Below the pieces are notes generated by a model, which was given only the letters and a program-made list of their open reading frames with translations, was not told where the DNA came from and made no database searches. A DNA stretch of 64,000 bases, from NCBI GenBank assembly GCA_004431415.1, contig QPMI01000162.1, positions 1-64,000 of the forward strand, in the 5' to 3' direction. Made by a program: the position numbers and the translations under genes. Shown piece by piece: positions 1 to 50,063 of this stretch. Numbering within the stretch: position 1 is the first letter of the stretch; each line of letters starts with the position of its first letter. This DNA comes from Cyanophora paradoxa CCMP329 (Eukaryota; Plantae; Glaucophyta).

Positions 1-533
1 CGCGGGCCGCGCGCGGGCCCGGCCGCGCGGGCGGCGGGCGGAGGCGATTGCAATTGCGACCCTAGATGGTTCGCCCTCGGCTCCGTGACAGTGAGTCGCG
101 ACTCAGTGACTCTACGTATACCGGTGCGGCCGCCGGGCAGTATACGTATACGTACCGTCTCTCAGAGTGACAGAGTCTACGCCGGCTAGCTCGACGTGCG
201 AGTCGGTGCGACGTCGACTCTCTCGGACGCCGAGTACATGTACAGTGTACACTATAGGCTATAGCTATGTCCTATAGCTCTAGCTATAGGGCTTTCCATA
301 GCTAGAAAAAGGAGTATGTAGTTCGCTTATCAATCGGGGCACCCCCTTCCTTTCCCTTTCCCCGACCCTAGAATCTGACTTTCTCTCTATTCTTGTGTAA
401 TCAGAAAACCTCTTTACACGTTAAACAATCTGTAATAGAAGAACAAAAACGTAATAAAAGTACAAGGTTTTCAATTATCCGAAGAAGACTAGACTAGTGA
501 AATTAAAGGGAAAGGGAAAGATAGAACGAAAGC

Positions 534-1126
534 CTACATCATATCCTCGAATTGTTGCCGATCGTCCCGCTTGGTTCCTGGCGGGAGGAGTGTGATTTGA
601 GCACGAAATGGACTGGAGGGCGGGTCCCGAACCGCGGGCGCATCCTCGTCGGCCTCGTCGACGTCGGCCTCGTCGGCCTTGCGCTTGCGGCTGCTGGAGG
701 GCGAGGGATCGGGCGGCGTTGCTCCATCTTCTGCACGAGGATTAAGGTCGGGGCGCGAGGCACGGGTCGGCACTGCGCACCTTTCGGAGAGTCCACGGGC
801 GTGGCGACCGGTACGGGGGCTTGGCGGGCGCCCCTGCCTCGGCCGCGTGCGGCTCCGCGCGCGCGCCCCCGGATACGAGGTGCTTTCTTCGCGGGAGCGA
901 AGCTTTGGCGACCTCTAGGCTTCCGCGGGGCCGTTGCCGGGCGCCCCGCGGTCGCCGCCGATGCTGCGGGCGCCGATGCGGTCGCCGCCGATGCTGCGGG
1001 CGACGCGGGCGCCGACGCGGTCGCCGCCGATGCTGCGGGCGACGCGGGTGCCGACGCAGGCGCCGCGGCCTCCGCCGCGTCCTCGGAAGGCCTCCCTGCG
1101 CGCTTGCCCTGCGAAATGCTTCGCAC
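534..1126 (-). CDS. Ala/Pro-rich then basic low-complexity ORF, possibly the frameshifted C-terminal tail of the AAA+ gene
   Basis: ASAPASPAASAAT repeats followed by KKAPRIRGRARG. Lies just downstream of the AAA exons on the same strand and is followed by AT-rich UTR-like sequence. Confidence 0.35.
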
Positions 1127-1157
1127 TGCGCGATGGACCGGCCGTCCGGCGGCTCCT

Positions 1158-2440
1158 TTAACTCCCTCGGCGGACGGCCTGTTTCACGCTCTCGTAGTCG
1201 ATGTCCCTTTTCCTGTCGTCCTGATCAAGAAAGAACGGGGCACGCGATGGGCCCCGGCGACGGACCTGATGCTTCTGAGTTTTTCCCCGAAAATCTCTCG
1301 AAGACCTGGTACGTGAAGCCCCCGACATTTCGTCCGACGCGAGCTCGTCGAGGTTCACGTCGGCGAAGCACTCCTCGCGGAAGAGATGCTTGTTCGTCGG
1401 GGAGAGTTCCCGCCCCTGCCGCTTCTCGTTCTCCTTAAGGAGCGCCTTCTCGTGCTCGAACTTCATGATGGACTTGATGATCTCGCGGCGGAATTCGGCG
1501 TTGGGTGCGGGAAGGAAGATGCTGCGGAACGGGATTAAACGCGAAGGAATACGTGCAGGACGGCGTACTGCTTGCGGAAGCGACGAAAGAACTTGGCGTC
1601 CATGTCGAGCGGATAGTTGGTCGCGGCGATTACAATCGGACCGCGGCCGGGGTCGCCTGTGCGAACTCGCCGGTGCTCGACCTCGTTGTAGAGTTTGTCC
1701 ATCGCCGTCGCAAACTAACACCCTGTGAGTCGCGGGAGGCGTGCACGAGCACTCGAGCGTACCGTGTTCATGACCTGTTTCTGCAGTTCGTCCAACGACG
1801 CCTTGGAAGCTGGGACGGTCGCATCCACCTCGCTGGACCAAACGTTACCGAGAGCGCCATATTATGCATTGCAGGGAGCGAAAATATACGCACTCGCACA
1901 TTAAGATGACGTCCTGCACGTCGTAGGCGATGTCGAAGAACGCCTCGACGATCTTTGCGGCTTGCCCGTACTGCTGCAAGATCAGGGATGGAACGGGTGC
2001 GCGGGCGAACGGGCGAGCACATATTCGCTGATCTGCGACGGCTTGTACTCGAGGAAGCTGTAGCCGATGCGGCGAGCGAGCTCGCGCGCGAACTGTGACT
2101 TGCCTGTGCCCTGCGCAACGCGAATCAGAGAGCGCGAAGCGGGCCCCCGCGCGGAAGCACGGACCGGGCGGCCGAACAAGAGGACTCCAGTGGGCGAGAG
2201 ACGCTGAAGGGACGGCCACCCGTCCGCCGCCTCGTCTTCCGGGTCGGGTTCCAACCGTTTTGGACCGAGGGCTCCCTCGAGGTCTTCCATGTCCCCTCCG
2301 GAACGACTGGCGACGCAGAGTCGGATAAGGTTCATCGAGGCGCGGGCGACACGCTCGCACATAGGGTGCATGCTCTTGAGGCGCTCGTTGTCGATGAACG
2401 CGTTGCGGATGCCTTCGTGGACGCCGCCCTGAGCAGACGT
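1158..2440 (-). CDS. Classical-clade AAA+ ATPase (CDC48/spastin-like core), multi-exon; N-terminus unresolved
   Basis: After removing short introns (e.g. 2111-2164): Walker A GVLLFGRPGTGKS, Walker B VILMCDEVD, KQVMNTFATAMD, second region of homology IVIAATNYPLDMDAKFFRRF, then IFLPAPNAEFRREII and DVNLDELA. Confidence 0.85.
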
Positions 2441-2992
2441 CCGCCTTGCTCAACGCCGTTTCGAAGTCCACTTTTCTGTCGCGATCGGGAACGTGAGAAC
2501 GGTCGCCCCCGCCGCGAGGTGCGGTTAAGAGCACCGATCCATGTCGGGGGCGGGTCTCGGGCCATCGCGACCGCCATCGGGGTGCAGGTAGAGGGGTTGT
2601 TCGGATGGTAGATCGGATCTCGGGGTCGAGGAGGCATGACAGAAGGGCGTCGTCGCACGCAACCTTTTTCCGCCACGTGTGCTTCCAGCGACCTTCGGAC
2701 GGCTTGATGAGCTCATCTCCGCGCTCGCTTCTGCCGCCTACTCTCCTCGCTCTTCGACGCTCGATCGCCCTTGGGCGGGGCGGCGGGGCGCGGCCGCCGC
2801 GCCGGAGCCGTCGGCGCCGCGCCCGCCCCCGACGCGCGTGCTCCTCCACATCGAGACCGCTGCCAAGAGAGAAGTTGGGCGCGTTGAGCTTCTTCACGTG
2901 CGTTCGCGTCGTTTTCGGGCCATCATGAGCAGACAGGAAACGCCCGGAGCGCCGCGCCGATCTTGCGAATCCGCAGAAGCTGCGAGCGAGGG

Positions 2993-4306
2993 TCAGGGTG
3001 GCGCCCGCGCGACGAGCGGGATCGGGCGGACCACATCGACCAAATTCTTCTTCCCTTTTCGGTGTCGATGTGATCGACCGTCTTGTCGCGAAAGTCTTGG
3101 ACCGTCCCGACGTTTCGAGGGAGAGCATCTTCGCCCAGTCAGCTTGCCGTGTGGATCTTCATCGAAATCCGCGATCCTCTCCCCGACGAGGCCTCGAATC
3201 CGTTCGCTCAGGGTCTTGCTGCTGATCATGAACGACTCGACCGCTCGCCCGCCTTCTCCGCGCATCCTCCTCCATTATCCGCCGACCCTCGAAGTCGTAG
3301 AAAGGGCGACGTACTGCGACGAAAGAGCTCGTCGGCGGGCAAAGTGGGAATGGGATTGGGGGGCGTTGTACCTGGCAACCATCATGAAGGTCGCGGTGTT
3401 CTCCAGCTCGCCTGCCGTGAGGATGGAAGCTGCCGCCAACATGAACCGATCCAGCTCCCTGTACTTGCTCGGATCGTTCTTGATTTGCGAGATGAGATCC
3501 ACAGGTGCGGAGGAGGCGAGCCCGCGCATGGCGCGGACAGCTCGCCCGACGCGACGGGTTGACGCTGACAAAGGCGCTGTTGGAGGAGCTTTCGATCGCG
3601 TCCGCCACCACATTGCCCACTGGCGCGGCACCGTGCTCGACGGCAAGGTGCGGCCGGCGAATGCTGAGGTGGTCGAGGACGACCCGCCGAAAGCTGCCAA
3701 GCCAGCCATCCGCGAGATCTCGACGATGGCCTCCGCCTGCGCTCGACCGTCGCGTCGGCGTGACGCGTACGGCCCTTGCGCGGGCGGTCTGGATCGTCGT
3801 CCGAATCGTCGCCAGCTTCTTCGTCCTCCTCGTCCTCCTCGTTCTCCTCGTTTTCTTCTCCTCGGTCGCCGTCGCCGGCTTGCGTCGCCGGCCTTGCCGT
3901 CGCGCGTTCGCCTTCTTGGGACTCCTTTCTTCTGCTGGCGCTGCCCTTTCTTCGGCTTCTTTTCGCTCGCCTTGGCCGAGTCGAACACGCGCTTGAACAG
4001 GTCCACCGCTGGTTTGCTGCCGCTGCAGGCCTCCGGAAGCCCCGCAATGTCGTGGTACTTTGCACAGACGGAGCCTGTGTTCCCGAGATTGACGGCCTCG
4101 GGACTCCTCCGCATTCGCTGCGCGTCGAGCGGTTTACAACGAGACACTCTACACACTCGGTACGATGCGCACCACCCCGCAACCGCGTTCCTGTAGCTGC
4201 GGAAGCGCTCGTCCGAGATGAAGCACGGAAGACACAATCGGCGTCGTGCGCCGCAGTCGGGCTTGCAGAACGAGACCGGAGCAACACACCTGCTTACATA
4301 CGACAC
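2993..4306 (-). CDS. Hypothetical protein with Cys-rich N-terminus, Lys-rich and acidic tracts; disrupted by frameshifts or unresolved introns, possibly the N-terminal part of the AAA gene
   Basis: ORF 3275-4306 has CKPDC, CLPC and CASYRVC motifs and KKPKK. An acidic EENEENEEDEEDEE tract lies in another frame. Confidence 0.35.
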
Positions 4307-5280
4307 AATGACCTCCGCTGCGGATCGGCGTTAGCGGAGCAGGGCGCGCTCGTCAAAGCGCGCACCCGTCGGCTGGGGCGGCGGGGCGGCGTTCGGCGGC
4401 TCTGCGGGCCTCCGCTCCCGCCCGGCTGCATCCGCTACGCTTAACAGACTGCTCTGCGCGTGGAGCCGAGCTTTCACGGTACCCAGCCGCAACCGTGTAT
4501 CCCATCTGCTAAGACGCGTTCCAGCCGGTCTGCCGCGTTTTTTCGACCCTTTCGGGCATAGTTGACCCCCGGGCCCCTTTCCGACCGTAGCCCCGCATGT
4601 GGACGACAGCGCCGGCGAATTCGTGTGCGTTCGTTTCGTATGCAGCATGGCGCGCATGTCGGCGCGCCCTTGCGTGCCCTCGCGAGCGCGAACACGAGAG
4701 GTCGAGCGAACATCGTGCTCCACACCCCCCAGCCGTGCGTTACTGATACTCCTTGGCTCTCGAAAGATGACTCGCCATCCAACGTTAACACGTACAAAAG
4801 CTCTCTCGAACGCGCAAGAGTTCCTCGAAACCGGAGCAGTTAGTTGGCCATGGGGCCTCCTTTGCCCGCCCGCGTCCCCGCGGCCGTCACGGAGCCGCCC
4901 TGAATCCTTCTAAAGGCTCGACGCAGTCGTCCGCCGCCACTCTTGACGCGCTCGCGCAGATGCCGATCGGGCCCGCGGCGAAGACGATGCAATTGCAAGC
5001 CCTGCGACGCGGTTCGGCTCGTCGCTCCTCGCGCGACCTGCGCCGGGTCGGAGCGAGAGCTTATTATGCTTAGAAACAGGCCGCCGGGGCAGGTGGAGCT
5101 CTCAACGCGCACCTTGGGCGTCGTTCGTCCGCACCCCGGCCCGACGCCCGTTTCGTCTACCAGAGTCATCCCGCCGCGCAGATGGAGGTTATAATTGAGC
5201 TCGCGGAGTACGATGAAAACCGCCCATCGCCGCCCTCCGCCACTCGTCCCCTCACCCCCCCCCCCCCCCCCCCCCCCCGG

Positions 5281-5392
5281 CGGCCGTCACGGAGCGGCGG
5301 CGCGTTCGTCTAGGGCGGGGCGGCCGCGGCGCCGCCCGTACCCCCCTCGGCCGTCACGGAGCGGCGGCGATTCCGTCTAGGGCGCGGCCGGT
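5281..5392. repeat. 66-67-bp B-type tandem repeat, 2 copies
   Basis: Unit CGGCCGTCACGGAGCGGCGGCG..GTCTAGGGCG at 5281 and 5348. Confidence 0.9.
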
Positions 5393-5397
5393 CCGAC

Positions 5398-6633
5398 ATC
5401 TCTTTCCTTTGCACCCCCGGCGGCGCGAGGTGAGCCCCTCGCCCGCCGCCGGCGCCCCCCTAGAGGGAACTGACTCGGCTCCGTGACGGGCGGCGGGGGT
5501 AGGCCCGTGTCTGTTTCCTTCGTTCCCCCGGCGGCGCGGTGAGCTCTTCGCCCCCCGCCGGCGCCGCGCTAGAGGGAACTGACTCGGCTCCGTGACGGGC
5601 GGCGGGGGTAGGCCCTCATCTCTTTCCTTCGTACCCCCGGCGGCGCGGTGAGCCCCTCGCCCGACGCCGGCGCCCCCCTAGAGGGAACTGACTCGGCTCC
5701 GTGACGGGCGGCGGGGGTAGGCCCGCATCTCTTTCCTTCGTACCCCCGGCGGCGCGGTAAGCCCCTCGCCCGACGCCGGCGCCGCCCTAGAGGGAACTGA
5801 CTCGGCTCCGTGACGGGCGGCGGGGGTAGGCCCGCATCGCTTTCCTTCGTACCCCCGGCGGCGCGGTGAGCCCCTCGCCCGACGCCGGCGCCCCTCTAGA
5901 GGAAACTGAGTCGGCTCCGTGACGGGCGGCGGGGGTAGGCCCGCATCTCTTTCCTTCGTACCCCCGGCGGCGCGGTAAGCCCCTCGCCCGACGCCGGCGC
6001 CGCGCTAGAGGGAACTGACTCGGCTCCGTGACGGGCGGCGGGGGTAGGCCCGTGTCTCTCTCCTTCGTACCCCCGGCGGCGCGGTAAGCCCCTCGCCCGA
6101 CGCCGGCGCCGCGCTAGAGGGAACTGACTCGGCTCCGTGACGGGCGGCGGGGGTAGGCCCGTGTCTCTCTCCTTCGTACCCCCGGCGGCGCGGTAAGCCC
6201 CTCGCCCGACGCCGGCGCCGCGCTAGAGGGAACTGACTCGGCTCCGTGACGGGCGGCGGGGGTAGGCCCGTGTCTCTCTCCTTCGTACCCCGGCGGCGCG
6301 GTAAGCTCCTCGCCCGACGCCGGCGCCGCGCTAGAGGGAACTGACTCGGCTCCGTGACGGGCGGCGGGGGTAGGCCCGTGTCTCTCTCCTTCGTACCCCC
6401 GGCGGCGCGGTAAGCCCCTCGCCCGACGCCGGCGCCGCGCTAGAGGGAACTGACTCGGCTCCGTGACGGGCGGCGGGGGTAGGCCCGTGTCTCTCTCCTT
6501 CGTACCCCGGCGGCGCGGTAAGCTCCTCGCCCGACGCCGGCGCCGCGCTAGAGGGAACTGACTCGGCTCCGTGACGGCGGGGGTAGGCCCGTGTCTCTCT
6601 CCTTCGTACCCCCGGCGGCGCGGTAAGCTCCTC
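5398..6633. repeat. 109-bp A-type tandem array, about 11 copies
   Basis: TAGAGG(G/A)AACTGA.TCGGCTCCGTGAC anchors at 5461, 5570, 5679, 5788, 5897, 6006, 6115, 6224, 6332, 6441 and 6549. Confidence 0.97.
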
Positions 6634-6644
6634 GTGTCACCCAT

Positions 6645-6790
6645 ATCCCCTAAGTTGTCACTAAGATATATATAAAAAGCCGAATAGATAACGAGTACAA
6701 CTCTCATCCCCGCCCGCGCAGATGGAGGAGCCCACCGACTTCGCGGGGTACGAAGGAAAGAAGACAGAGCCCACCGCCGCCCTCCGCCGC
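6645..6790. promoter_or_regulatory. AT-rich spacer core between the A and B arrays, copy 1 (TATA-like or unwinding-element-like)
   Basis: AGTTGTCACTAAGATATATATAAAAAGCCGAATAGATAACGAGTACAACT, with imperfect inverted arms AGTTGT(C)ACT / AGTACAACT. A near-identical copy lies at ~9330-9475. Confidence 0.5.
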
Positions 6791-7060
6791 CCGTACCCCC
6801 CTCGGCCGTCACGGAGCGGCGGCGATTCCGTCTAGGGCGGGGCGGCCGCGGCGCCGCCCGTACCCCCCTCGGCCGTCACGGAGCGGCGGCGATTCCGTCT
6901 AGGGCGGGGCGGCCGCGGCGCCGCCCGTACCCCCTCGGCCGTCACGGAGCGGCGGCGATTCCGTCTAGGGCGGGGCGGACGCGGCGCCGCCCGTACCCCC
7001 TCGGCCGTCACGGAGCGGCGGCGATTCGGTGTAGGGCGCGGCCGGTCTCCTTCCTCGGCC
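6790..7060. repeat. 66-67-bp B-type tandem array, 4 copies
   Basis: Units start at 6803, 6870, 6936 and 7002. Confidence 0.95.
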
Positions 7061-7355
7061 GTGCACCGCCTCTACACCCTTCACGTTCAGCCTTTCCCGC
7101 AGTCACGTGCCCTCGTTCGCTTCCACATGCCCTCTACGACGCCTCTTCCGCCCCGTACCCCTCGATACCCCGGCCCGCCCGCCCAACTCCCGCCGTCGCT
7201 CGCGGATCGCGAGCCGACTGCGCGCGCTGTTCTCGAATATACGTGATTTGCGGATTCAAACGATACGCTGGACGCGTGGGGCGGGGAAGGCGCTTTCGCT
7301 CGAATTCAACTGACGGCGTGCTTAAAGGCGGAGCAGACGGTCCCTGGACGCACAT

Positions 7356-7852
7356 TTGCCATCGACCTCGACGATCATGGAGGCCTCTACCGTCGTTCAA
7401 AACGCCGCCCGTCGCATCTCCAGCGCCCTCGTCGCCGGTCGACCGATCGCCCTCGCGCTCCGGACTCCGACCCTGCTCAAGCGCGTCGCCGAGGTCGTCG
7501 AGCCCGCCGTCGCCAGCCTCCTCGTGCGCGCACACGTCGTCGTACTGCCGGAGCCGCGCGGCCACTGGCTCGTCCGCATCACCCCGCCCGGAGCTCAGGA
7601 GCCCGCCTCTTGGGGATCAGCGACCGAACTCCCCGCCTCCGAGAGCGCCGTCCTCGCCCTGCTCGCGGGATTGAGACCGTCGTCGCCCGCTTCGCGCGGG
7701 CCGAGGCGGACGAGCTCTCCGCAAAGATCCTCGCGGATCCGCGCATCGCGCACCTGCGGCGCCGCGTGGGCGTCACGCGCCAGGAGGTACCCGGAGCACC
7801 GAATTCGATCTTCTGTGTTTACGCGGTCGGCCGCGGCGCGAGCCGTAGTTGA
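7356..7852 (+). CDS. Small orphan protein between the two repeat modules, one apparent frameshift near 7670
   Basis: Protein-like MEASTVVQNAARRISSALVAGRPIALAL...LALLAG continues in another frame as IETVVARFARAEADELSAKILADPRIAHL. Confidence 0.4.
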
Positions 7853-8574
7853 CGCGTTCGTAGGCTCCGTACAGCTAGAAAACGCAGCGCTATAGCTGTA
7901 GCCACGCCGTGATGCAAATTTTAAGCTCGTCGACGTCTGTGATTCGTAAATGCGTACCCCAAATCCGCTGCTCATGGGAGCGAGCCGGGGCGAGCTTTGA
8001 GGCGAGCTGCGAGGCGCGTCGCTGTCTAGCGCTCGTTGCGGGCCTTGCGCTCGCACAGCGAGCGTCCAGCGGGCCAAATCGGCATGAGACCGGAACGTAT
8101 CGTTGCAGCGCCCCCAGCGCGACGCAGATGCGGCGGTTGGCGTGAGAGAGCCGCGGATCGGAGACCTCGGCGGCTCGGATCGCCTCGGCTTCGTGCCGGC
8201 GGATGTGGCGCGCGCCCGAGGTACTTGTAACCTTCGCCTCCGGCCGCAACAGCTTCCGGACGATAGATGGCGGAGGAATGGTGCGCCGTGCCATCGCGCC
8301 GCGCAGCGAGGTCGAGCGCCTTGATAGCTTACATCGCGCAGGCCTGGGTCGTTCGCGGCCGGCGCGGACGAGCTCGAGGCCCGGCGGCCGCGGCCTCGAT
8401 CGAGCGCCCGGAGGCTACGTGCGCGTTCTACCGACACGGCCCGAGCTCCGTGATAGGCGGCGTGGACCAACGCCGGACGGGCGCGCGGCCAACCTAAGCG
8501 GATCCGGAGTCGCGTTCGCGAGCTGTCGCCTTCGTTACGATAGGTGCGCCCGTTCCTCAGCGCCGGTGTCGCGT

Positions 8575-9318
8575 TAGAGGGAACCGACGCGGCTCCGTGA
8601 CGGGCGGCGGGGGTAGGTGCACCCCTCAGGGCCTCCTTCGTTCGTACCCCGCGTAGGCTATGAGCGCCGCGGCCGACGCCGGCGCCGCCCTAGAGGGAAC
8701 TGACGCGGCTCCGTGACGGGCGGCGGGGGTAGGCCCGCATCGCTTTCCTTCGTACCCCCGGCGGCGCGGTAAGCCCTTCGCCCGCCGCCGGCGCCGCCCT
8801 AGAGGGAACCGACTCGGCTCCGTGATGGGCGGCGGGGTAGGCCCGCATCGCTTTCCTTCGTACCCCCGGCGGCGCGGTAAGCCCTTCGCCCGCCGCCAGC
8901 GCCGCCCTAGAGGGAACTGACTCGGCTCCGTGACGGGCGGCGGGGTAGGCCCGCACCTCTTTCCTTCGTACCCCCCGCGGCGCGGTACGCCCCTCGCCCG
9001 ACGCCGGCGCCGCCCTAGAGGGAACTGACTCGGCTCCGTGACGGGCGGCGGGGGTAGGCCCGCATCGCTTTCCTTCGTACCCCCGGCGGCGCGGTAAGCT
9101 CCTCGCCCGACGCCGGCGCCGCCCTAGAGGGAACTGACTCGGATCCGTGACGGGCGGCGGGGGTAGGCCCGCATCTCTTTCCTTCGTTCCCCCCGCGGCG
9201 CGGTGAGCTCTTCACCCGCCGCCGGCGCCGCCCTAGAGGGAACTGGCTCGGCTCCGTGACGGCGGGGGTAGGCCCGTGTCTCTTTCCTTCGTACCCCCGG
9301 CGGCGCGGTAAGCTCCTC
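8575..9318. repeat. 109-bp A-type tandem array, 7 copies (first degenerate)
   Basis: Anchors at about 8575, 8691, 8800, 8908, 9016, 9125 and 9234. Confidence 0.95.
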
Positions 9319-9329
9319 GTGCTACCCAA

Positions 9330-9475
9330 ACCCCTGAAGTTGTCACTAAGATAAATATTAAAAGCCGAAAAGATAACGAGTACAACTCTCATCCCCGCCC
9401 GCGCAGATGGAGGAGCCCACCGACTTCACGGGGTACGAAGGAAAGAGGACGGAGCCCACCGCCGCCCTCCGCCGC
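9330..9475. promoter_or_regulatory. AT-rich spacer core, copy 2
   Basis: AGTTGTCACTAAGATAAATATTAAAAGCCGAAAAGATAACGAGTACAACTCTCATCCCCGCCCGCGCAGATGGAGG, a direct repeat of 6645-6790. Confidence 0.5.
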
Positions 9476-9479
9476 CCGT

Positions 9480-9735
9480 ACCCCCCCTCGGCCGTCACGG
9501 AGCGGCGGCGATTCCGTCTAGGGCGGGGCGGCCGCGGCGCCGCGCGTACCCCCCTCGGCCGTCACGGAGCGGCGGCGCCTCCGTCTAGGGCGGGGCGGCC
9601 GCGGCGCCGCGCGTACCCCCCTCGGCCGTCACGGAGCGGCGGCGCCTCCGTCTAGGGCGGGGCGGCCGCGGCGCCGCGCGTACCCCCCTCGGCCGTCACG
9701 GAGCGGCGGCGATTCCGTCTAGGGTGCGGCCGGTC
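9480..9735. repeat. 66-67-bp B-type tandem array, 4 copies
   Basis: Units start at 9488, 9556, 9623 and 9690. Confidence 0.95.
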
Positions 9736-9968
9736 TTCTCCCTCCACCGTGTACCCCCTCTTCGGCCATCGCGGTACTTCCTTCCCGCCATCGCAACGCA
9801 TATACCAAGCAATAACTCGCGTACACGCACAGGAGCGGGCGCTTTCCGCCGTCACAGAGCGGATGGGAATCCTCCAAGGCCCGGGTCGGCTCTGTCGAGC
9901 GCGTGAGCGAGCCATCTCCCGCCCCTAGGACAACTGCCCGTCGCTCCGTGACAATACCGATCCTTCGC

Positions 9969-12900
9969 TCAGGTACGCATCTTTGGCGGGCGACCGCGCC
10001 GCCGGGCAGGCTGGGCGCCGCGCCCAGCGCCGCCGCCGCGCGACGACGACGGAGACGAGGACGGTGTGGCAGGCGCCGGGAGGCCCAGCAGCCCCAGAAT
10101 GCGCTCGGGGCCGGTCCGGATCTCGACCGTGCCGTTCCGTCCCTCATACTCGACGGGATAAAGTGACGAAGGAAAGCTCCACTCGCGCGGTCCGCCCTCC
10201 TGGCTCGGCGCCCACGCGCCGCCGAAGCGCTTCAGCACCACGAAGCGCGACTCGTACTCGCCGCTCGGCAGGTCGATCGTCTGGACGAGGCGCGCGAACC
10301 ACACGCCGGGGAGCGGGCTCGCCGCGTGCGTCGCCAGCGCCGCCACCACCTGCCCCGCCGGGTACGGCGAGGCCGACCGCCAGTGCAGGTGGTAGAGGGG
10401 CGGCGCGGGGCCGGCGGCGGCGACGCCGACGGGGATGGGCTCCTGGGAGGCGGCGCCTCCGCGCCCGCGCGCGCGGCCGAGGCCGCGCCGGCCGCGCCCG
10501 CCGCGGAGGAGGCCGCGGAGCAGTAGTGCTCGTGGGCCCGCGCCCCGGCCGAGGTCTTAAACTCCTTGCGGTGCGTCAGGGCGGCGGCGCGCGGGGGCGG
10601 CGCGGGGCGGGGCGGGGCGGGCGGCTCACCCGATCGCAGGGCGCGCAGTACCTCTGCTCGGCGATGGCGAGCTCGCGCTCGAGGGTGTAGTCGGCGTCCC
10701 AGGCGCGCGGCCTCTCCGCCCCGTCCGCCGCCGCTTGGCCTCTTCGCTCCCGTTCGACGTGCCGCTCCCGCCCTCGCCGTCGTCCTCCGAGTACGAGCTG
10801 GAGCTCTCCGCGCCGCGCCCCGCGCGGGGACGCGCCGGGGCGGACGGCGGCGCGGGCAACGGCGCCGGCTCGTCGTCGGCGTCCTCCTCGGAGTCCCCGC
10901 CGTCGTCCCGCTCCGCCTCGGTCCCGCCGCCCGAGCTCCCGCCCGCCGCCGAGGGCGCGGGGATCCGGATGGCGGCGGCGGCGGCGGCGGCAGCGCCGGT
11001 GCCGGCGGGAGTTCGAGGCGGGGCGGCGACTCGGCGGAGGCGGCGCTCTCGCGGGCCCGGAGCCGCGCCTCGTCGTGCTTGACGGCGAGCTCCTCGAGGT
11101 ACGCCACCGCCGCCGCCGCCGTGCGCGCCCGCGCCGAGTAGTCGTAATTTTGCGTCGCCGTCAGCACCGAGTGGCCCAGGAGCTTGGCTGCGGGCGCGCG
11201 GGCGGGTGAGAGAGGCGGGGGGGGGGGGGGGGCGGGGGCGCTTCGGCGTACCCGTCCCGTCGACGACGGCGGCCGCGGTGTCGCCGGAGATGCGGTTCGC
11301 CGCGGCCTCGTCGCGCACGTGCGTCGTGATGATGGCCCGCATCGCCTGCGCCGTCACCGGTACCCCCGTCCACTTTTCCGTCACGCGCTTGACAAAGACG
11401 CTCCAGGCCGAGTCGGAGAGGGGCGCTCCCGAGGCGCTCGTGAAGAGCCAGCCCTCGTCCGCGCCCCCCGGCAGCGGCGGGAGGAGGAGGCGCCGGTACC
11501 GCTCGACGTACGAGGTGAGCGGCCGCTGCACAAACTCCGGGATCGGGTAGCTGATCGCCCCCGCAGTTTTCGCGGTCTTCGACGAGAGGACGGCCTCGCC
11601 CTGCCCCGCGTCCGCCCGCATCTGGGTGAGCGTGATTGTCCACGCGCCGCCGTCCCGCCGCAGCGTGTGGCCGATCCTGCGGGGGGCGCAGAGGGGCGGG
11701 ACGGGGCCCTCGCTCGGCGCGGGGCGACGGCGCGGCGCGGGGGGTACGGCACCTGAGGCGGCGGACGATGCCGACGCGCGAGGGCGTGGAGACGAGGAGG
11801 GAGAGGAGGACGCCCTCGCGGAGGGCGAGCGCCCTCTCGTACTCGAGCGGCGCCCGCTCCGCCGCCTCCAGCGCGTCCAGCCGCGCCGAGAGGAGCGCCT
11901 CGAACGGCACCCAGTTCGGTCCGCGCTGACGCCATTTCACGCCTTCGCGCTTCTCCTTTCTCAGCTGCGCGATCAGGTTCCGCAGCGGGCGCCCGTGGGG
12001 GCCCTCGGAGCCGGCGGCGGCGCCGGCCGTCCGCGCGTGGACAAAGGAGTGGGCCTGGAGGGCCGCCTGCGTGTACCCCGCCAAGGTGCCCGCCCGGACC
12101 CTGCGCTCGTCGCGGAGAAACGCGAGGAACCGCATCCACAGGTCGATAAAGTCGACGCGGGCGCCGGAGAAGAGGTCGAGCGTGAGAGCGCCGTCGATCT
12201 TCTCGCGGAGGGCGCAGTACCCCAGGAACCGGAGGAGCGTCGTCCGCTCGTTCGCCAGCGTCGTGGAGCGCTCGACGGCGGCGCCGGGGCGGTCGGGGTT
12301 GAGGAGGCGGGTGCGAAACTCTTCGTACGCGGCGAGCTGCGCCTTGAGCTCGCGCGACTGATCCTCCTCGCGCAGGCCGTACGGGGCGCCCCGCTCTGCC
12401 GGCTCGTCGCCCGCGGGGCCTTCGTCCTCCTCCTCGCCGTGCTCGTCGGCCGGGGGTACGGGCGGCGGGGGCGGCGAGGCCCCCGCCTCGGCGGACCCCT
12501 CGGGATCGGCGCCGCCCGAGTCCGACTCGGACTCGTCCGGCTCGGCGGGGGCGGGCGCCGGCGGGGCGCGGGCGCGCTTGGGGGGTACAGGGTCCCCGGC
12601 GGCGCCGAGCACCACGCGCTCGGGGTCCACGAGGGCGTCCACGTCAAAGAGCGTCGCCCCGCCGTGGTCCATGCTCTCCAGCATCCGCCGGTACGCCAGC
12701 CGCTTCTCGGCGATGAATTTCCCGTTGTCCTTTGCGATCTGATCCGCCATAGGGCCCCCGGGGCGGAAGAAGTGGATGGAGCCCTGCTCGAGCTCGTCCG
12801 ACCACGGAAAGCCCGTCGTCGCCTCGACGATCCCCACGTCCGCGATCCAGAGGACCCCTGCGCGGTGCGCGCGGCATGAGTTTGATCCCGTTACCCCCGC

Positions 12901-14376
12901 GGAATCGAACCGGGCCCCGCACAGATGCCGCACTGGAACCCGTCCCCCTGGAGGCGCCCACCGGCCGTCTCCTCGCGGTACGCGTGCGCGGGAAAGGCCG
13001 CCTGGGCGGCGTAGAGCAACCTGGCGTCGCAGGGCGCGCCGAGGCTGTCCCAGTACCGCGTCGTCCTGCGGGGGCGGCGCGATCGCGAGTGGCGCAGAGG
13101 ACGCGGGCTCGGGCGCGGGGGCGCGGGGCGCGGCGCCGTCGGACCTCGCGGCGCCGGAGAGCACGAGCAGCGTCCAGTGCCCGCCGCTGTTCCACGTCCG
13201 CTCCGCCCCGCGCCGCGCGATCGACGTCGAGACCGGGCAGAAGAGGGTACCCCCCCGCGCCACGAACCCCAGGGCCTTGCGCTGACGCCGCTCCTCGCCC
13301 GCCGCAGCGTAGCGCCGAAGGAGGCTCGTCAGAATCTCCACCGGCATGGGGTACAGGGCCCGCACGCGCGCGTTCTTGGCGCGGTGGAGCAAGAGGCTCA
13401 TCACGTTGGCGACGTGCGTGTCGGCGAGCCACTCGCGCGCGCCAAAGATACCGACCCTGGGTCCCGCAGGCGCCGGCGCGGGGGCCGCGGCGGCGACGGT
13501 GGCGGGGTCGGCGCCCTCTAGCACGAGCCGCTGGCGGCGAAAGTCGAGGTGGAGGTTCGGATCCCGGCCGGGGAGATCCTTCAGGAGGCTTTCGACGGCG
13601 ACGGCGCTGAGGAACGCCCAGCGGCGCGCCGAGCTCCGCGTTCGCTCCCCGTCGACCTCGGCGCCGATGCCGGCGTAGTAGGTGAGCGTCCTCGTGAGCA
13701 TGCCGAAGCGCTCGCGCCCGACGCTGAGCGTCGTAACGTTCCAGCGGTGCGGGCCGCCCGACGCGAGTTCCGGGAGGCGGCGCTCGATCTCCCGGCGGAG
13801 CGAGTTCGTGGCGCGCGAGGAGCCGTAGAGGAGCTCGGAGAGCGACGCCATGGGGACCCAGAGCTTCAGGTCCGGAGCCTCGATCCGGGTCGCCGGCAGG
13901 GCGTAGAGCCGCTCGCCGCCGACGCGCACGACGTACAGGTCGTAGCGGGAGAGGGCGCACAGGCGGCGGCGCTCGTTGGCGGCATAGAACGCGGTGGCAG
14001 CGGCGCGCTTCCGGGCCTCGTCGCTGTCCCGCCACGCCTGGTCGACGACCTCGAGCACGTACCTCATCGACAAGAGGCGCGGCGGGTCCTCGGGCGTGTA
14101 CTCGCCGCGCCGGACGGCCCCGAGGGTCTCCAGGAGGAGGATCGCGTGCTCGCTCGGCACGGGCCGCGCTGGGACGCCATAGCGCGCGGTGAGCACGTCC
14201 TGCACCTCGTCCTCGCCCTCGCCCTCGGCCAACGGCGGCTCGCCCAGGACGCGCGCGAGCTCGGCAGAGCAGACGGAGGGCCCGGCGTCGGACTTTAGCA
14301 CCACGAGCTGCGTCCGCCCCCACGGCCCGTCGAACTCGATCAGCTCGTACGCGTCGTGGACCGTCTGGAAGTACAT
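9969..14376 (-). CDS. Multidomain protein: possible Bro-N-like pair, Ulp1/C48-like cysteine protease, tyrosine recombinase, C2HC zinc finger, AT-hook (spliced)
   Basis: Introns 13066-13144, 12858-12922, 11677-11752 and 11188-11251 give a continuous frame. Protease motifs: EWLADTHV, GGHWTLLVL, RYWDSLG, QGDGFQCGIW. YR motifs: TPSRVGIVRRLR, SKTAKTAG, WLF, TAQAMRAI, AKLLGHSVLTATQNYD. The 3' part (CAPCDREFKTSAGARAHEHYC, RRRGRPPK) needs another intron and apparent frameshifts. Confidence 0.88.
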
Positions 14377-14609
14377 GGTCGCCGGCCGGGCCGTGCGGGC
14401 GGGCGACCCGGAGTGGGAGGGGCGAGGTGTTGGGATTCGACGTGCGGGGTGGGATCTATTTATGGGTTACCTCGCACCTTTAATCCTCGCGCTCGCGTCG
14501 CCGATGTTATCTTTAGTCCCTGCGCACAGGCCGCGCGCGGGCGGAAGGCCGACGGGAGCGGACGAGGCCGAATCGTATCCCCACGAGCCGAGGCCGCCAT
14601 CCCGCGACG

Positions 14610-14830
14610 TTGATCACGTACGCCCGCCCGGCTTCGTCCCCACCTACACCTTACCCCTCTGAAATTCGGCCAGGTTTGCCACCTAGGGGCGCCCGCCCTC
14701 GTCGCCCGCCTGCGTCGCGGCGGCGGCCGCCGCGCCCCGCCCCGCATTGACCACGTACGCCGGCCCGGCTTCGTCACCCCCACCCCCACCCCCGCCTTTG
14801 CTAATATTCGGCCAGGTCTTCCACCAAGGC
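14610..14830. repeat. Two ~80-bp direct repeats (period ~137) in the divergent intergenic region between the YR and Skp1-like genes
   Basis: TTGA(T/C)CACGTACGCC.GCCCGGCTTCGTC...ATTCGGCCAGGT occurs at ~14610 and ~14747. Confidence 0.7.
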
Positions 14831-15068
14831 GCTCGGCAACGCGCGGCGTCGGCGACTCATCACCGCCGCCCGCGGCGATGAGATCGGTGCGCCCCCGCCG
14901 GCTCGGGCTTCGGGGACGGCGCCGGGCGCCCTGCGACGCCGCGAGGCTCAGATCCGAACGCGGCGGCGCGGGAGGCGGAGGGCCGTCTGGAGCGGACGTG
15001 GCCGAACTCTCCCCAGAAATGCCTCCGATCTCGCTCCTCCTCGAGCTCGTCTTCGTCGGATGACAGCT

Positions 15069-15508
15069 ATGACACCGATGATCCTTCTCTGCTCCGACGG
15101 CGTCCATATCCCGTGCCCCGCGGCGCTCGCCGCCGACGCCCGCATCCTCTCCCTCGCCTCGAGCTGCTCCGACGCCGACGTGGCCCCGTCCCGCTCCCCT
15201 TCCGCTCCTCGCTCGTGTCGGCGGCCGGCGTCGCCCTCTCGCACCCCTCGCCCGCGGCGGCCGCCCTCGCCCCCGGGGCCTACCCCGACCCGCGGGCCGC
15301 CGCCTCGGCTCTCGTCTTCCTCGCCGAGCTCGCGATCCTCGCCGATTACCTCGACGCCCGGCGGCTCGAGCTGGCGTGCGCGGCGCTCGCCAGCAGCGCG
15401 TCCGAGCTCGCCATCAAGTCCGCCTGGGCCAAGGCGAGCGTCCGTCCGCCCCCGCCCCGCGGAAGCGCCCCTTTCAGGCTATCGGATCTTCTTAGGGACG
15501 TGTATTGA
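15069..15508 (+). CDS. Skp1/BTB(POZ)-like small protein with a frameshift near 15185
   Basis: N-terminal MILLCSDGVHIPC, VPLPFRS, and C-terminal LAELAILADYLDARRLELAC resemble the Skp1 motifs IxLxSSDG, IPLP and LFELILAANYLDI. Confidence 0.65.
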
Positions 15509-16429
15509 ACGGCCTCTCCGAGTACTGCGTGCACCGGCGTCTGCGGGGCCAGGGGTACAGATTTTGGGGACCCTTGGACCCCTCTCCGGGGACCTAGGGT
15601 TCGTTTTGAAACGAGGTCCGGGATCCGCACTAGCAATTTATTCGCGCTCTCCGGGCCCTCCCGAGCCCCTGCGACGCGTTTGTGCGGGGCCGACTTTTTG
15701 TTTAACGGGGTATTCGACGGTCCCTCAATCTGTATTGGATAATTTCGTGCTCCACTAATTATCAGCGTCCAGTGTTTTCCTATTACACGGTAGTGATGGC
15801 CCACTGATGGGCCAGTGATCATGATGGCCCAGTGATGGGCCACTGATGGTTCCACTGATTGGGTGATGATAGCTATAGATTTCCGGATCAGTCGATTTTC
15901 CGAGGAATTTCAAACTTCGAGGATTCTTATATATATGCCTATACTGGCCCTATAGTTGCCAACTTGCCATCTAGATTCAGAGTGATTCTAGAATCTAGAG
16001 CTGCGACGGCATAGGAGCTTTACTACTACGGAGCTTTGCATCTCGCACGCGTGTCGCGCGGGCTGTCCGCGGCCGACGGACCGGCGACGGATCAAGCCCC
16101 GGACTCCCGGCTCAAGTCCGACGGCCGCTGATCATGAGTGCGCGGGGGTCAGGGCCGGTCAGCCCGGTCAGGTCGCAAAATTGAAGTTTCTGCGGTGCCA
16201 GGCTGCCAGCTGCGCAGGCCTAGGCCGCCGCGGCTGGGTTATTGCAAGGGGGGAAAAGAAGACCGAAGGTCTTCCCCCCCTTGCTTCCCGTTCCCTCGCT
16301 TCAGCCAAAAGTTTTCTATGAGGCCGTTTTCGAGGGCCAGCTTGCAACGAAATTGTCGGTTATTCGCGATCCGATTGGCTCGGTGAACCGGTCAGCTCTC
16401 GACTTTCGAGCGTCGAATCGGAGGGGAAA

Positions 16430-16491
16430 AAGTGGTTTTCGAGGGGAAAACTAACTTCTCAAGTGGTTTTCGAGGGGAAAACTAACTTCTC
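16430..16491. repeat. 31-bp perfect tandem duplication
   Basis: AAGTGGTTTTCGAGGGGAAAACTAACTTCTC occurs twice. Confidence 0.85.
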
Positions 16492-17245
16492 TCTAACTCC
16501 GGTCTTCGAATTCCTTGCGCCGTTCTGCATGGAACCAGTTCTCCCTAGCTCTCTCCTCTACATTTCGGCTTCCTCGCAGTGCGTCGCGTACGCCTTGCTC
16601 TTCGTTGCGCGGTTCTGCATGGAACCACTTCTCTCTACGTACCTGTCAACGTCTCCTCTAGATTAGCTTGCAACGAAAAATGCGCCCCTGCCTAGCTGGG
16701 CCGCTGATCGTAGCCGAGGACAGGCCTTCGAGACCGTGCTCTTTCGCTGCGCTCGGGACGCCGCCGAATTCGAGCCTATATTGCAGAACCGCGTGCGGAG
16801 CTGCCCGCAGCCGAGCACGCCGGACGGGCCTGGCGCTCTTGTTGCGTTTGGCACCTGGCAAGCAGACCAGTTCGCGCGCTGCGCACGGCGCGCCGGTCGA
16901 CGCCGCTTGCAATTGTCTGCTCATTCAGGTTGAGGCTGCTGTCAGCGTCGGCGCTCCGACGTTAACGTTCGGCGTCCCGCGTTGCCGGGACGCCGAACGT
17001 TGCAACCTGCCGCGCGCGCTGGGCCGGGGTCGATCTACATCTGCCCCGTGCATGTTCGTGCCACTACTACTCTTTCATTAGATCCAGATTCCCCCCTTGC
17101 ACCCCCGGCGCGCCAAAACGCGGCCGGGCCACTAGTATATCGATCTACCGTGTAACACTTAATTAATGCGCCGGTAATTAATGCGTTTTTGGACCCGGAC
17201 CCCCAGTTTGGATAATAATGCGGTCCCGAATTAATGCGTTTTATA

Positions 17246-20200
17246 TTTGTTTTTGGTGAATTACCGGCCACAGTCTCTAGACACCAGCACTGCGGGGGCT
17301 GCCCAGGGGGCATAGAGACAAAATAGCAAAATAACTAAGACAAGAGCACGAAGAAAGATAAGACAAAGAGCCAAAATCGACAATAAAAAAGGAAAGACAC
17401 AGAGCTCGAGACAGATCGATTGCGAGAAGAGACGATAAATCGAGCAGATCTAGGGACAGAGGATAACTGACACGAAGAAGAGCCAGAGCTAGAGGATAAC
17501 TGACACGAAGAAGAGCCAGAGCTAGAGATACCATCAATATCAGAAGGAATTACATCACTAAGAAGCGGGGACAAAATTGAGAAAGATAAATAACAGGAAG
17601 AAGACAAGTAAGAGGAACAACAAGACGACATGGAGGCGGAGGCGAAGCAGGACGATGCGAAAGGGCAGAGCTACGGCACGAGGTCGAGGAGGACACAGGA
17701 GGCGGAGCAGGCGGATCAAGAGCAGGCAAAAGAACAGTCAAAGGAATCACTAAAGCCGGCCGGGGTCGAGGCGGGCAATCGAACTGCAAACGACGGCGAA
17801 CAACAGGTCGAGCACGAGGACTATAGCTAGTATTGAAACTAACTCTAGCATCAACACTACGATCAGAATCCGAACCAGACCGAACTAAACTAGAAGACGA
17901 AGAAGTACGCCGGCGCCGGCGGGATACGATCGCGACCAGCGAAGCAGAAGACAAGGACAAAGGCGGTAGTCCGGTATCAAGAACAAAGGCCGGAGGGTCC
18001 GGCCCGGCAAACCGCCGGGGGAAGTAGAAGGAGCCGCAGGCTCGGCAAGCCGGCGACGGGTACGACCACGAGTCCGGAAGGAGATCGGGGAAGCCGGTCC
18101 CGGAGCTGAGGGCCCAGGAGCAGAGCCAGGAGAAGGTAAGCCCGGCGAGAAATCTGACCCGGAGCCGGAACCCAGCGAACGACGACGACGAAGAGGCCCC
18201 GAGGAGCCACGACGGGGGAGCTACCGAGCAAAGTACTGACAGCCGGCGCCGAACACGGCGGCGGAGGTACCCCGCAGACAGTGGCAGGCGGAGAGTCCAG
18301 GGTCGATCGAGAGATCCGCCGACGGGAATGCGGCGGGGGCCGACGAGACGGAAGAGGCGAGGAGGGGCCGAGGAAGGGTCGGAGGCAGGGGAAGGGCCAC
18401 GAGCAGGTGACGGGGATCGCTGCCGGCGCCGAAGAGAGGGCAGCAAAGCAGGAGAAAGGTCGGGTGGCGCCGGAGCAGATGACACGGAGGTCATGGCCAT
18501 GGGCGGTGCAGAGAGAGACGAGCTCGAGGGCGCAAGGGCCCGACGAGGGCGCCGGCGGCGAATCTCACGAGCGCCAGGAAGCGGGATAGGACCCGCAGAT
18601 GGGACCCGAGGCGCCGAAGGGGGAGCAGGGAGCCGGAATGACGGGGAGATCGAAAAGAGGACAGTCTCGCCAACACTCGGAAGCGGGGCAGAGGCCGAGG
18701 ACCCGGAGCTCGAGGGGGGGAGGGAGGGCGGAGGAGGAGAGAGGAGGCGGCTATTCGAAGGGTATGGAGAATCGAGAGCGGAGGCGAGGGAGGCCGAAGT
18801 GATGGCGAGCTCTGGAGGCGAGGGGGCCTGCAAGCGGATCCGGGAAAGTGGATGCAGACGCAAAGAGACCGGGGACGTAGAGGCGGGAGGGGCATGCAAA
18901 AAGATAGTGCCGCCCAGCGTCACAGTTGCAGAAGCGGGGCAAGAAGGATGGGCTGAAGAGGGGGCTGAACCAGGAGGACGTCAGAAAGAGGGCCTCGCAG
19001 GGGCGGAAGTGGAGGAGCAAGGGGAAGAGGTAAGAAGGGGTATGGAGCTGCAAGATGACCAGGGACCTGCCGGGAACAGGCAAGTGAAGAGGCCCGTGAC
19101 AGCAAGTTGTAAGGAGGGAGGAGGCAGAGGCGGGGCCAGAGGGCCAAGGAGCACAGGGATCGGGACCGCAGGGAATGGGGGAAAGGAGCGTCGAGAGGGG
19201 CAGCGAGAGCAGGAATAGGAATGGGCCCAAGGGTCACTACAGGGGCCAGAGCAGGAGGGGACGGCGCAGGAGGCGGGCGACCACCAGGGATCCCCAACGG
19301 GACATTCCCACGAACGGCAAACTCCGCAGGATTCCGGAGGACAGAATCGATGTCACGCGAAGAGACGAGGTTGTCAGCACCGCCCGAAGAAGGAGCGCCG
19401 GACGAGTCAGAATCAGAGCTTGAACTAGAACGATGAGAACCGGTACCAGACTCTGAATCATGTGCGTCATCATCCGAGGCAGCCTGATCATCAGCGTCAG
19501 CAGCAGCCAAGCGAGCGCGCCGCTCCTCCAACAAGGCCGAAGCCTGCGAAAGGGTGAACTCGAGGTACGACATATTTCTGTCCCAGGCGGCAACAAGCGC
19601 GGCGCGGTTGTAAGAAGGCGCATCAATGTCAGCCTCCTCAAGATCGCACCGAGCGCGAGCAACCTGTTGGATGGAAAATACGCCAGCAAGGATCGCTCCA
19701 AGTGAGCGAAGGCAGAAGGCGGGGTTAACTTTACTGCGCAAAATGGGCCCAGATAAATCCGGAACCGAGAGGATGTGGAAGAGAGAGAGCTCAGGCACTG
19801 CGACCTCTTCACGCTCATCCGGTGGAAGAGTAGAAGCCCAGAAATTCAGGCGCTCACGAATGAAATCCCAGAACGAACGAGAAAGCGGGCACTCAGAGAA
19901 AACGTGCGCGTGAGAGCGAGCAGATCCGTCATTACAAACCCGACAGAAACGACGGCGGGGCGACTGTTGCTCGCCCAAACGATACAATTTGAAATGCAAA
20001 CGGTAAAGAGCATCGATCCAAAGCATCGGGAAACACTGAAGGACGACAAGATTAGGAAGACGGGACGGAGACAAGGCGCCGGGAAACCCCCACTTAGCAT
20101 CGGGCATCTGAGCGTGGCTAGACACATCGCGAAGCCGCTGGACCTCAAGGCAGTAGAAGCGACGAACAGAGGAGAGGCGGAGAGGGAGCATACGAGCGAA

Positions 20201-28600: not shown

Positions 28601-29025
28601 TGCACGTGATTTCTACTTAGGCTGGCCATGGATAACAGCCAGCCACAGCTGGCTGGAGTCAGCTAGTCAGCTGCAGGCCTAGGCTGAGTCAGGCTGTGCG
28701 CGCCAGCACATATATTCATAGAGGCGTCGAACCTCGCACTGTTATAATCATATAGTCACATATGAGAAGCACTGTTCTACATCTAAACATGCAGACTTGC
28801 ACTGAAATTTGAAAGCGGTGGCCGCCGGCCATCGGAAAGGGAAAATTCAAAGGAGCGCGGCGTCCCACTAGTTCTGCGGCTGGCCATGGGCCGAAGTCTA
28901 TCTAGTGCTAGTCGACGTCTATCTAGTGCTAGCTATAGTGCGAGCCCACAGAGCTAGATCGAAACATAATTAAAATATGTAGAATGAGCTAATGAAATTC
29001 GTGGATGCGCATATCATGCATATTA

Positions 29026-50055: not shown

Positions 50056-50063
50056 TATTTTTA

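Follow-up and report, generated by a model that had tools for sequence, protein, structure and literature searches.

Introduction

Cryptons in the broad sense are eukaryotic DNA elements that encode a tyrosine recombinase (YR), as presented in the available parts of three sources (PMC13465315, PMC3212892, PMC9977147); the accessible portion of one of them adds that some oomycete Cryptons also encode a C48/Ulp1 peptidase, and describes Cryptons without terminal inverted or long direct repeats (PMC3212892). Here we describe a putative relative of these elements in Cyanophora paradoxa CCMP329, an alga belonging to the glaucophytes. In the first 64,000 nucleotides of contig QPMI01000162.1 (hereafter the window), directional arrays of a 28-bp box face each other across AT-rich cores next to a spliced YR gene. 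The repeated unit that contains them consists of an AAA ATPase gene, the arrays, two small open reading frames (ORF-A and ORF-B) and the YR gene. We regard the arrays as likely cis-acting parts of a multi-copy YR-encoding DNA segment, which is itself likely a large Crypton-like mobile element. The specific reading that we favour, by analogy and at a probability of roughly 40%, is that they are arm-type binding arrays around an attP-like (or joined-ends) core of such an element.

Several other systems offer points of comparison. Lambda Int, in the accessible part of bioRxiv 2023.11.06.565760, has an N-terminal arm-binding domain and recognises arm sites, five in all, placed around a core. YR crossover sites themselves consist of two inverted repeats of 11-13 bp around 6-8 bp, according to excerpts of PMC3212892. 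For Starships a circular intermediate is reported in the available section of bioRxiv 10.64898/2026.09.21.753150, phaeovirus ends are described in part of PMC13236599 as an inverted repeat with imperfect direct repeats, and Polinton-like virus and giant-virus insertions in C. paradoxa are mentioned in passages of PMC12220804 and PMC12344493.

Convergent arrays of a 28-bp box surround two AT-rich cores

The arrays, cores and single boxes are arranged along the first 10 kb of the window as follows.

62..89, plus strand: solo whole box with 2 mismatches, ~450 bp downstream of the AAA gene
4886..4913, minus strand: solo whole box with 2 mismatches, ~450 bp upstream of the AAA start
5166..5285, no strand: decayed third core module of which the right half remains, abutting unrelated DNA on its left
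5286..5393, minus strand: B2 array, 2 boxes (5286-5313, 5353-5380), 67-bp period
5399..6633, plus strand: A11 array, 11 boxes (starts 5460..6548), 108-109-bp period
6634..6724, no strand: core 1, 91 bp between inverted A-like tails, with a 9-bp inverted repeat (6653-6662 / 6694-6702)
6725..7047, minus strand: inverted A-like tail and B4 array, 4 boxes (6808-7034), 66-67-bp unit
8574..9318, plus strand: A7 array, boxes 8574..9233
9319..9409, no strand: core 2, with the same 9-bp inverted repeat (9338-9347 / 9379-9387)
9410..9735, minus strand: inverted A-like tail and second B4 array, 4 boxes (9494-9722)
9851..9878, minus strand: degenerate solo box
9925..9952, plus strand: degenerate solo box, directly beyond the YR stop codon

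A first-pass annotation of this DNA had proposed the layout B2-A11-core-B4-two ORFs (1.5 kb)-A7-core-B4, and Tandem Repeats Finder together with motif scans recovered the same order and counts: the 109-bp unit is present 11 and 7 times, the 66-67-bp unit 2, 4 and 4 times. Searching for CTAGANGGAA-N8-GCTCCGTGAC with up to 3 mismatches gave 30 matches in the window, compared with a mean of 0.02 and a maximum of 1 in 100 shuffles. A weight matrix built from these 30 sites added the boxes at 9851-9878 and 9925-9952, bringing the total to 32, and detected no box above 10 bits outside 62-9952 across the 64-kb window. The sites near 80 and 4885, previously taken for solo half-sites, are in fact whole boxes, and the one near 9942 is a weaker whole box. 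Seven further 1-mismatch matches to the right block (at 8445, 18106, 49824, 50638, 56212, 58429 and 63755) were dropped because the left block was missing.

In each module the A boxes lie on the plus strand to the left and the B boxes on the minus strand to the right, 233-234 bp apart across the core, so that both modules have directional sites on both sides of a central core in the manner of a lambda-type attP. Both cores are accompanied on their B side by an inverted, decayed copy of the A tail (local score 77 versus shuffle maxima of 53 and 45), and the innermost A unit aligns to the reverse complement of the B side over ~95-115 bp. A and B thus descend from one inverted duplication, and each module is therefore one imperfect inverted repeat around a 91-bp core. 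The two units differ in length by 42 bp (109 minus 67), which corresponds to four helical turns.

Within the cores, the 9-bp inverted repeat encloses 31 bp of 74% AT; its score was reached by 3/200 shuffles for core 1 and 1/200 for core 2. The two cores differ at three positions in these 31 bp, all of them A-T swaps, and are identical in the central 8 bp, which in core 1 (6675-6682) form a candidate exchange region. The annotation's duplicated AT-rich core is thus duplicated indeed, with an AT richness that is modest (best 40-mer 75% AT, within the top 0.15% of window 40-mers). The half module to the left begins abruptly at 5166, one base beyond the expected end of the small inverted repeat and within ~10 bp of the AT-rich edge of the core; from there 67/90 bases are identical to 6704-6797, compared with 22/60 to the left of it.

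The module plan bears out the origin-like or att-like geometry suggested by the annotation, and phased direct repeats beside an AT-rich element are also what an iteron-type origin would have. The same DNA might accordingly serve an episomal or amplifying form as its locus for origin, partition or enhancer function, its directional, phased sites converging on an easily melted AT-rich centre. Convergent arrays of comparable kind occur in iteron origins, herpes oriS and EBV oriP, baculovirus hr regions and the STB repeats on the 2-micron plasmid of yeast, where a YR is encoded as well. Consistent with such a role are the conserved helical offset of the direct repeats, the preservation of AT content through 3/3 A-T swaps between the cores, the inverted repeat bracketing the AT-rich part, the solo boxes scattered across the intergenic DNA of the unit, the two small ORFs beside the arrays and the apparent tandem copies of the unit. 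However, a scan of 102 ORFs of the window detected no Rep, primase, polymerase or SF3 helicase (each unit having ~6-7 gene models beyond the window), the ATPase is a classical PF00004 member, no initiator gene was recognised in the window, and there is no sign of an episome. We consider this role possible and clearly less probable than the attP-like reading, with which it is not mutually exclusive.

The box is conserved as two blocks across unrelated contexts

The earlier annotation had defined one 28-bp box common to A and B. The box stands, and the A/B homology extends beyond it (CGCC...box...GGNCGNNGGGGGTA), to ~46 bp plus the inverted tail. Column identity over six independent contexts was 0.63 for the left block, 0.41 for the middle and 0.97 for the right block, with 0.45 and 0.35 for the flanks; the value for the right block is inflated since the solo sites were chosen by it, and only the left-block excess is unbiased. 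Between A and B, mismatches fall at 5/8 positions of the middle and 4/38 of the flanks (p=0.004, with bounds chosen after looking). Judged by its sequence, the box is a directional two-block motif.

Arms had been expected to be conserved over the spacer, and across A, B and solo contexts they are. Inside the A arrays alone, with the two outermost units excluded, changes occur at 3/20 in the arms and 22/81 in the rest (p=0.39). Adding the 14-bp tail post hoc gives 3/34 versus 25/75 (p=0.008), and counting all units, 4/34 versus 53/75. Variation is therefore not uniform between A, B and solo boxes, and it is not significantly non-uniform inside the A arrays without their outermost units.

These figures bear on whether the arrays could be a neutral, element-internal satellite, in which an inverted duplication gave rise to A and B, unequal crossing-over amplified them and the shared blocks simply reflect descent. 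The ~46 bp and inverted tail common to A and B would fit this, as would the p=0.39 within A, the failure of units, boxes and cores to fold better than shuffles (z -1.6 to +1.3) and the unrelated repeats of distant relatives. The four solo boxes, by contrast, hold both blocks at fixed spacing in unrelated flanks, and in the two outermost A7 units the box and its 14-bp tail persist where the remainder has drifted. A second sequence variant, seen at the first solo box in contigs of 4/4 DNA runs, also speaks against neutrality: it shares 65-94 exactly and departs after 115, and 116-300 does not align. The exact match around the box at 62-89 may be read as a modest footprint. A purely neutral origin therefore strikes us as unlikely. 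The same folding analysis led us to reject attC-like single-strand hairpins.

The box had also been likened to the two-armed crossover sites loxP and FRT, a comparison that fares poorly. If the box itself were the YR crossover site, with an asymmetric core and a 7-8-bp overlap, sites sharing a spacer would recombine and thereby expand or excise units. The size of 28-29 bp and the 7-8-bp middle, more variable than the arms as in loxP and FRT, would suit such a site, the dyad in A and B fits best as 11-7-11, each arm then carrying ANGGARY, and YR core arms can be degenerate (in the available part of bioRxiv 2023.11.06.565760). However, the arms are no more inverted than random DNA. They match at 6/11 positions in A and B, as well as 48-49% of random window sites do, and at 4-5/11, in other registers, in the four solo boxes, which lack a dyad; over all boxes, 48-96% of random sites equal the arm match, for which reason we do not regard the box as loxP-like. 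The inverted pair ACGGA/TCCGT noted earlier in B is real, but the dyad that it would form is not above chance. Furthermore, each solo box has its own middle sequence and hence no same-spacer partner. We find it improbable that the box is cut, and, going by the motif, it is likely to be a directional arm-type binding site for a protein of the element.

The arrays are linked to a multi-copy recombinase gene

The recombinase gene lies immediately beyond the last box.

9969..14376, minus strand: spliced YR gene, ~1280-aa protein, 98-100% per exon to model P0004

Copies of the unit were traced through C. paradoxa gene-model numbers and through contigs of sequencing runs aligned to the window, contig depth not being taken as copy number. 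Four near-identical YR models (g2900, g513, g23672 and g23682) are found on three contigs, and 4/4 have a copy of ORF-A (g2898, g515, g23671, g23681) one or two gene numbers away. The three AAA models (g2896, g517, g505) each lie two gene numbers from an ORF-A copy (3/3). Two contigs carry two ORF-A copies each, 10 and 12 gene numbers apart, which suggests tandem units with 6-7 further genes outside the window. The model g23681, which adjoins the YR g23682, ends in a read-through across A units, the core and a B unit, where residues vary; another copy of the YR thus also has the arrays at its side. This read-through and the proximity of ORF-A to all four models uphold the association between arrays and YR that had been presumed from the window alone. 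Because the unit recurs with the YR and in the same gene order, the arrays are not a free or common satellite unlinked to the YR gene but are linked to the element.

Contigs aligned to the window carry variant letters throughout 1-15.7 kb and include a variant B-to-A junction; one contig, spanning 12359-15739, ends at the latter position. With seven more diverged YR models on seven other contigs, the genome has 11 YR models on 10 contigs in all, multiple copies being a property shared with Cryptons. In one diverged paralog, P0016 (g17614), the first ~1080 residues of the model come from translation across a tandem array with a unit of ~140 bp, which lies immediately upstream of the YR. This array gave no tblastn match to the A/B arrays, and the 48 nt of its unit that can be deduced contain no box.

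The recombinase carries predicted additional domains and belongs to a large family

The YR protein comprises, in order, a Dachshund/Bro-N-like N-terminal domain, Ulp1/C48-like protease motifs, the YR domain, a zinc finger and a C-terminal domain. The motifs SRV, KTAK, AMR, GHS and NYDY mark the recombinase, and the catalytic R-K-R-H-Y columns are conserved in 43 full-domain relatives, as expected of a Crypton; the first His of HxxR is replaced across the family. A profile of 27 family sequences matches archaeal XerC/XerA-like YRs (E 5e-6). The protease motifs consist of H, D and QxDxxQCG, with a Pfam match only at E 0.035 in one paralog. A structural model of N-terminal residues 7-117 resembles Dachshund/Ski (Z 8.8, rmsd 3.2, 95 aligned residues), the best E against viral Bro-N is 1.3e-3, and we regard the likeness of the modelled domain to either as suggestive, not firm. 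With Pfam at E up to 1, five full YR proteins and 27 relatives gave only weak matches to Phage_integrase, Phage_int_SAM_1, Peptidase_C48 and zinc fingers, and none to GCR1_C, DUF3504 or DUF3435. Assignment by domain to CryptonF, CryptonA or Starship was therefore set aside.

A hidden Markov model of the YR domain retrieved 354 clusters (50% identity) at E up to 0.001. Of twenty that were looked up, six came from Cyanophora and one each from Botryococcus, Nematostella and a bacterial metagenome-assembled genome, while 11 carried no name or were hypothetical. The seven Cyanophora rows fell into one group (SH-aLRT 99) in a quick tree of 43 YR rows, built without named Crypton references. IMG/VR yielded two weak loci (35% over 60 aa) with one alignment and none with another, and an exact scan of IMG/VR for the box gave 0 matches.

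A distant YR subfamily was collected from 80 metagenome loci, mostly short, and 75 ORFs from the long loci were scanned. At L037 (268-8000) the YR relative lies beside a D5-type helicase domain, two methylases and DnaJ, and at L034 (12288-18568) beside a telomere resolvase and a DEAD helicase, neighbours that suggest virus- or linear-plasmid-like hosts for part of the family. At L009, a pogo-type DDE is among the neighbours, and the YR begins where an inverted repeat measuring at least 3.1 kb (arms 4323-7460 and 16078-19215, 100% identical) has its inner edge; the repeat may be an assembly artefact. Within it lie a stretch rich in TATA, three repeats of 68 bp and a two-block motif in repeated copies, and from the other arm starts a small convergent gene that by eye resembles the YR N-terminal domain alone; this plan parallels that of the Cyanophora modules, with the same reservation that it may be artefactual. 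A repeated two-block motif upstream of the YR is common to L009, L018 (6846-7025) and L004 (1804-2225). Telomere-like CCCTAA runs occur near YR relatives in 5/82 loci (L013, L025, L063, L065, L066).

Other genes of the unit

539..4431, minus strand: spliced gene for a classical AAA ATPase, whose other copies encode ~1050 aa (PF00004 E 1e-22; 3 near-identical models)
7377..7852, plus strand: ORF-A, 158 aa (5 gene models)
7890..8294, minus strand: ORF-B, 134 aa, convergent with ORF-A, a presumed gene with no Pfam family
15060..15505, plus strand: small ORF divergent from the YR, inside the multi-copy stretch

ORF-A has no Pfam match, and Foldseek gave none below E 0.16 for a single-sequence model (pLDDT 57.6). 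Its frame break at 7666 coincides with an extra G at full depth in contigs of both DNA runs aligned there. Single-base insertions relative to the window likewise occur at full contig depth at 2290, 4099, 4277 and 4285, so that assembly error is the likely source of several seeming frameshifts in ORF-A and the AAA gene. By eye the ORF at 15060 carries a motif that looks Skp1/BTB-like, a likeness that no Pfam or PDB match confirms. In each of two putative RNA runs from two studies (X15 and X17), one contig covering 12375-15491 spans the 5' part of the YR gene and this ORF; the contigs skip ~426 and 303 bases, more than the YR introns modelled there explain. No tRNA or Rfam family was detected in the window.

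The arrays lie 280-340 bp from the start of a small ORF (ORF-A or ORF-B), which raises the question of whether they are promoter or enhancer arrays driving convergent ORF-A and ORF-B, or the genes of the unit, with the core as TATA region. Core 1 contains TATATAAAAAG, and in L009 each arm of the long inverted repeat holds a gene together with the TATA-rich stretch and the three 68-bp repeats. Core 2, however, is without TATATAAAAAG, the second B4 array abuts the 3' end of the YR gene, and the divergent promoter region between the YR and the 15060 ORF contains no box. Regulation of transcription is thus a doubtful primary role for the arrays.

Comparison with described elements

Like Cryptons (CryptonF and CryptonS, including the active CryptonF-1_cRei of Chlamydomonas, as far as the consulted portions of the sources describe them), the Cyanophora unit is eukaryotic and multi-copy, has an intron-containing YR, shows no reverse transcriptase (RT) in view and has a link to C48/Ulp1. 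It differs in that the protease motifs are fused into the YR, which also has the N-terminal Dachshund/Bro-N-like domain, and in its long inverted arrays, AAA ATPase and small ORFs. Taken together, the unit likely works like a Crypton in the broad sense. A YR retrotransposon of the DIRS/Ngaro type, which would have RT and RNase H beside the YR and split direct or inverted repeats at its termini, was rejected, as no RT or RNase H accompanies the YR: there is no RT within 1-16 kb, part of the unit lying outside the window, and the nearest RT matches, at 21.1-21.9 kb and 55.6-59.5 kb, are outside the repeated unit.

With the attP systems of lambda-type heterobivalent integrases (lambda, mv4 and the Tn916 family, in the published sections available), the locus shares a predicted extra N-terminal DNA-binding domain and directional repeated sites flanking a core. 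It differs in having modules with 15 and 11 sites instead of about five, in its GC-rich 67/109-bp units, in lacking a proven 7-bp overlap with inverted core sites, and in being eukaryotic and spliced. Starships resemble the unit as large YR elements with several other genes; unlike them, the Cyanophora YR has no DUF3435 match, is not placed as the first gene at an end, and belongs to a host that is not fungal. Phaeovirus attP sites and YR-encoding Polinton-like viruses are likewise algal integrated elements with a YR, yet genes for a capsid, a packaging ATPase and a polymerase are all missing from the ORFs scanned in the visible 16 kb (each unit has ~6-7 gene models beyond the window), the Cyanophora genes are intron-rich, and the YR family gave two weak and then zero IMG/VR loci. 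Given the gene models outside the window and the inserts of this kind mentioned for C. paradoxa, a Polinton-like or viral identity of the unit may still apply. The yeast 2-micron plasmid, with its recombinase FLP, its FRT sites and STB, is a nuclear multi-copy element that combines a YR with a tandem repeat locus and small accessory genes, and resembles the unit in these respects. It differs in that the Cyanophora box has no FRT-like palindrome, no sequence similarity was found, and any episomal form of the Cyanophora unit is putative.

Other features of the window

The window is eukaryotic in content: its proteins match C. paradoxa gene models, and besides an LRR match it has an RT-bearing region at 21 kb and, at 54.6-59.5 kb, a pol of LTR type. 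Short inverted termini beginning TACCGTGTAA (17146-17242 and 23134-23237) flank the RT-bearing insert, and a similar TACCGTGTAA-type end lies at 15783, near the stop of the multi-copy contig; these termini likely represent a TA-targeting MITE family. Inverted copies of the 3' part of the RT-bearing element, 91-97% identical, lie 30 kb apart at 17243-18550 and 48719-50058. Two unrelated tandem arrays contain no box (112-bp unit, 7.5 copies, 51994-52832; 68-bp unit, 2.5 copies, 50063-50235). Nested inverted repeats occur at 28475-28604, and 31300-34000 holds many short palindromes (GTATAC runs; GC-only repeats at 33764-33975) and few ORFs.

Discussion

We hold the arrays to be real, linked to the element and probably functional. 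The attP-like plan that we favour is suggested by the resemblance of three features to lambda-type attP, namely an additional N-terminal domain on the YR, directional sites to either side, and a core between them. The restriction of the box to 62-9952 and the recurrent gene order AAA, ORF-A, YR count in its favour. The box would most plausibly be bound by the YR's own predicted N-terminal DNA-binding domain.

On the attP-like reading, each module would work like an expanded lambda attP or a joined-ends junction: the YR would load onto both arrays, and strands would be exchanged in or beside the AT-rich core. The 2.7-kb piece between the two cores (B4-ORF-A/ORF-B-A7) would form a small unit capable of excision, and an old core exchange would have left the half module at 5166 as its scar. 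Growth of the arrays would itself require only unequal crossing-over. Carried to its full extent, the proposal is of a nuclear eukaryotic element that recombines like phage lambda or an integrative and conjugative element (ICE), with a spliced, SUMO-protease-fused two-site integrase of an unclassified YR family, amplified arm arrays, exchange in an AT-rich core, tandem concatemers and a small satellite cassette sharing its ends; in this complete form we think it possible but not probable. By analogy to yeast Flp, the fused SUMO protease might shield the YR from SUMO-directed control.

Several observations weigh against the attP-like reading. The window and gene-model data contain no element end, empty site or circle, where a Crypton would be expected to have 4-6-bp terminal direct repeats and empty target sites, and no A-type array closes the YR side in the next 54 kb of the window. 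The fifth ORF-A copy (g503) has no YR match beside it, and no AAA match was found on the contig with two YR copies (g23672). The repeated unit could owe its copies to passive segmental duplication, since a unit may be duplicated without being mobile. The A11 module has 11+4 sites versus the five arm sites of lambda. Within the cores, the inner 11-8-11 register is best in both, with arms matching at 7/11 and 6/11, values equalled by 576 and 977 of 1000 shuffles. The fold matches of the N-terminal domain, obtained with a 7-sequence model (mean pLDDT 58.6), fall short of E 0.001. The DNA to the left of the half module is multi-copy, so 5166 is not a present-day boundary with varied flanks. Finally, the box is absent from all 82 related YR loci, leaving no comparative support outside the Cyanophora genome.

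The full-text literature searched holds no description of this Cyanophora YR family, of the unit or of such arrays in any Crypton, a search outside which lie most subscription papers, Repbase and supplements, where the element may already be listed. The family is a large one, with at least 354 clusters at 50% identity that barely match Pfam. Crypton-like elements are described without recognisable terminal structure, and how their recombinases find the ends of an element becomes directly testable here, in a cultured alga that offers 32 copies of a defined 28-bp motif, a defined core and a YR to which a candidate extra DNA-binding domain is attached.

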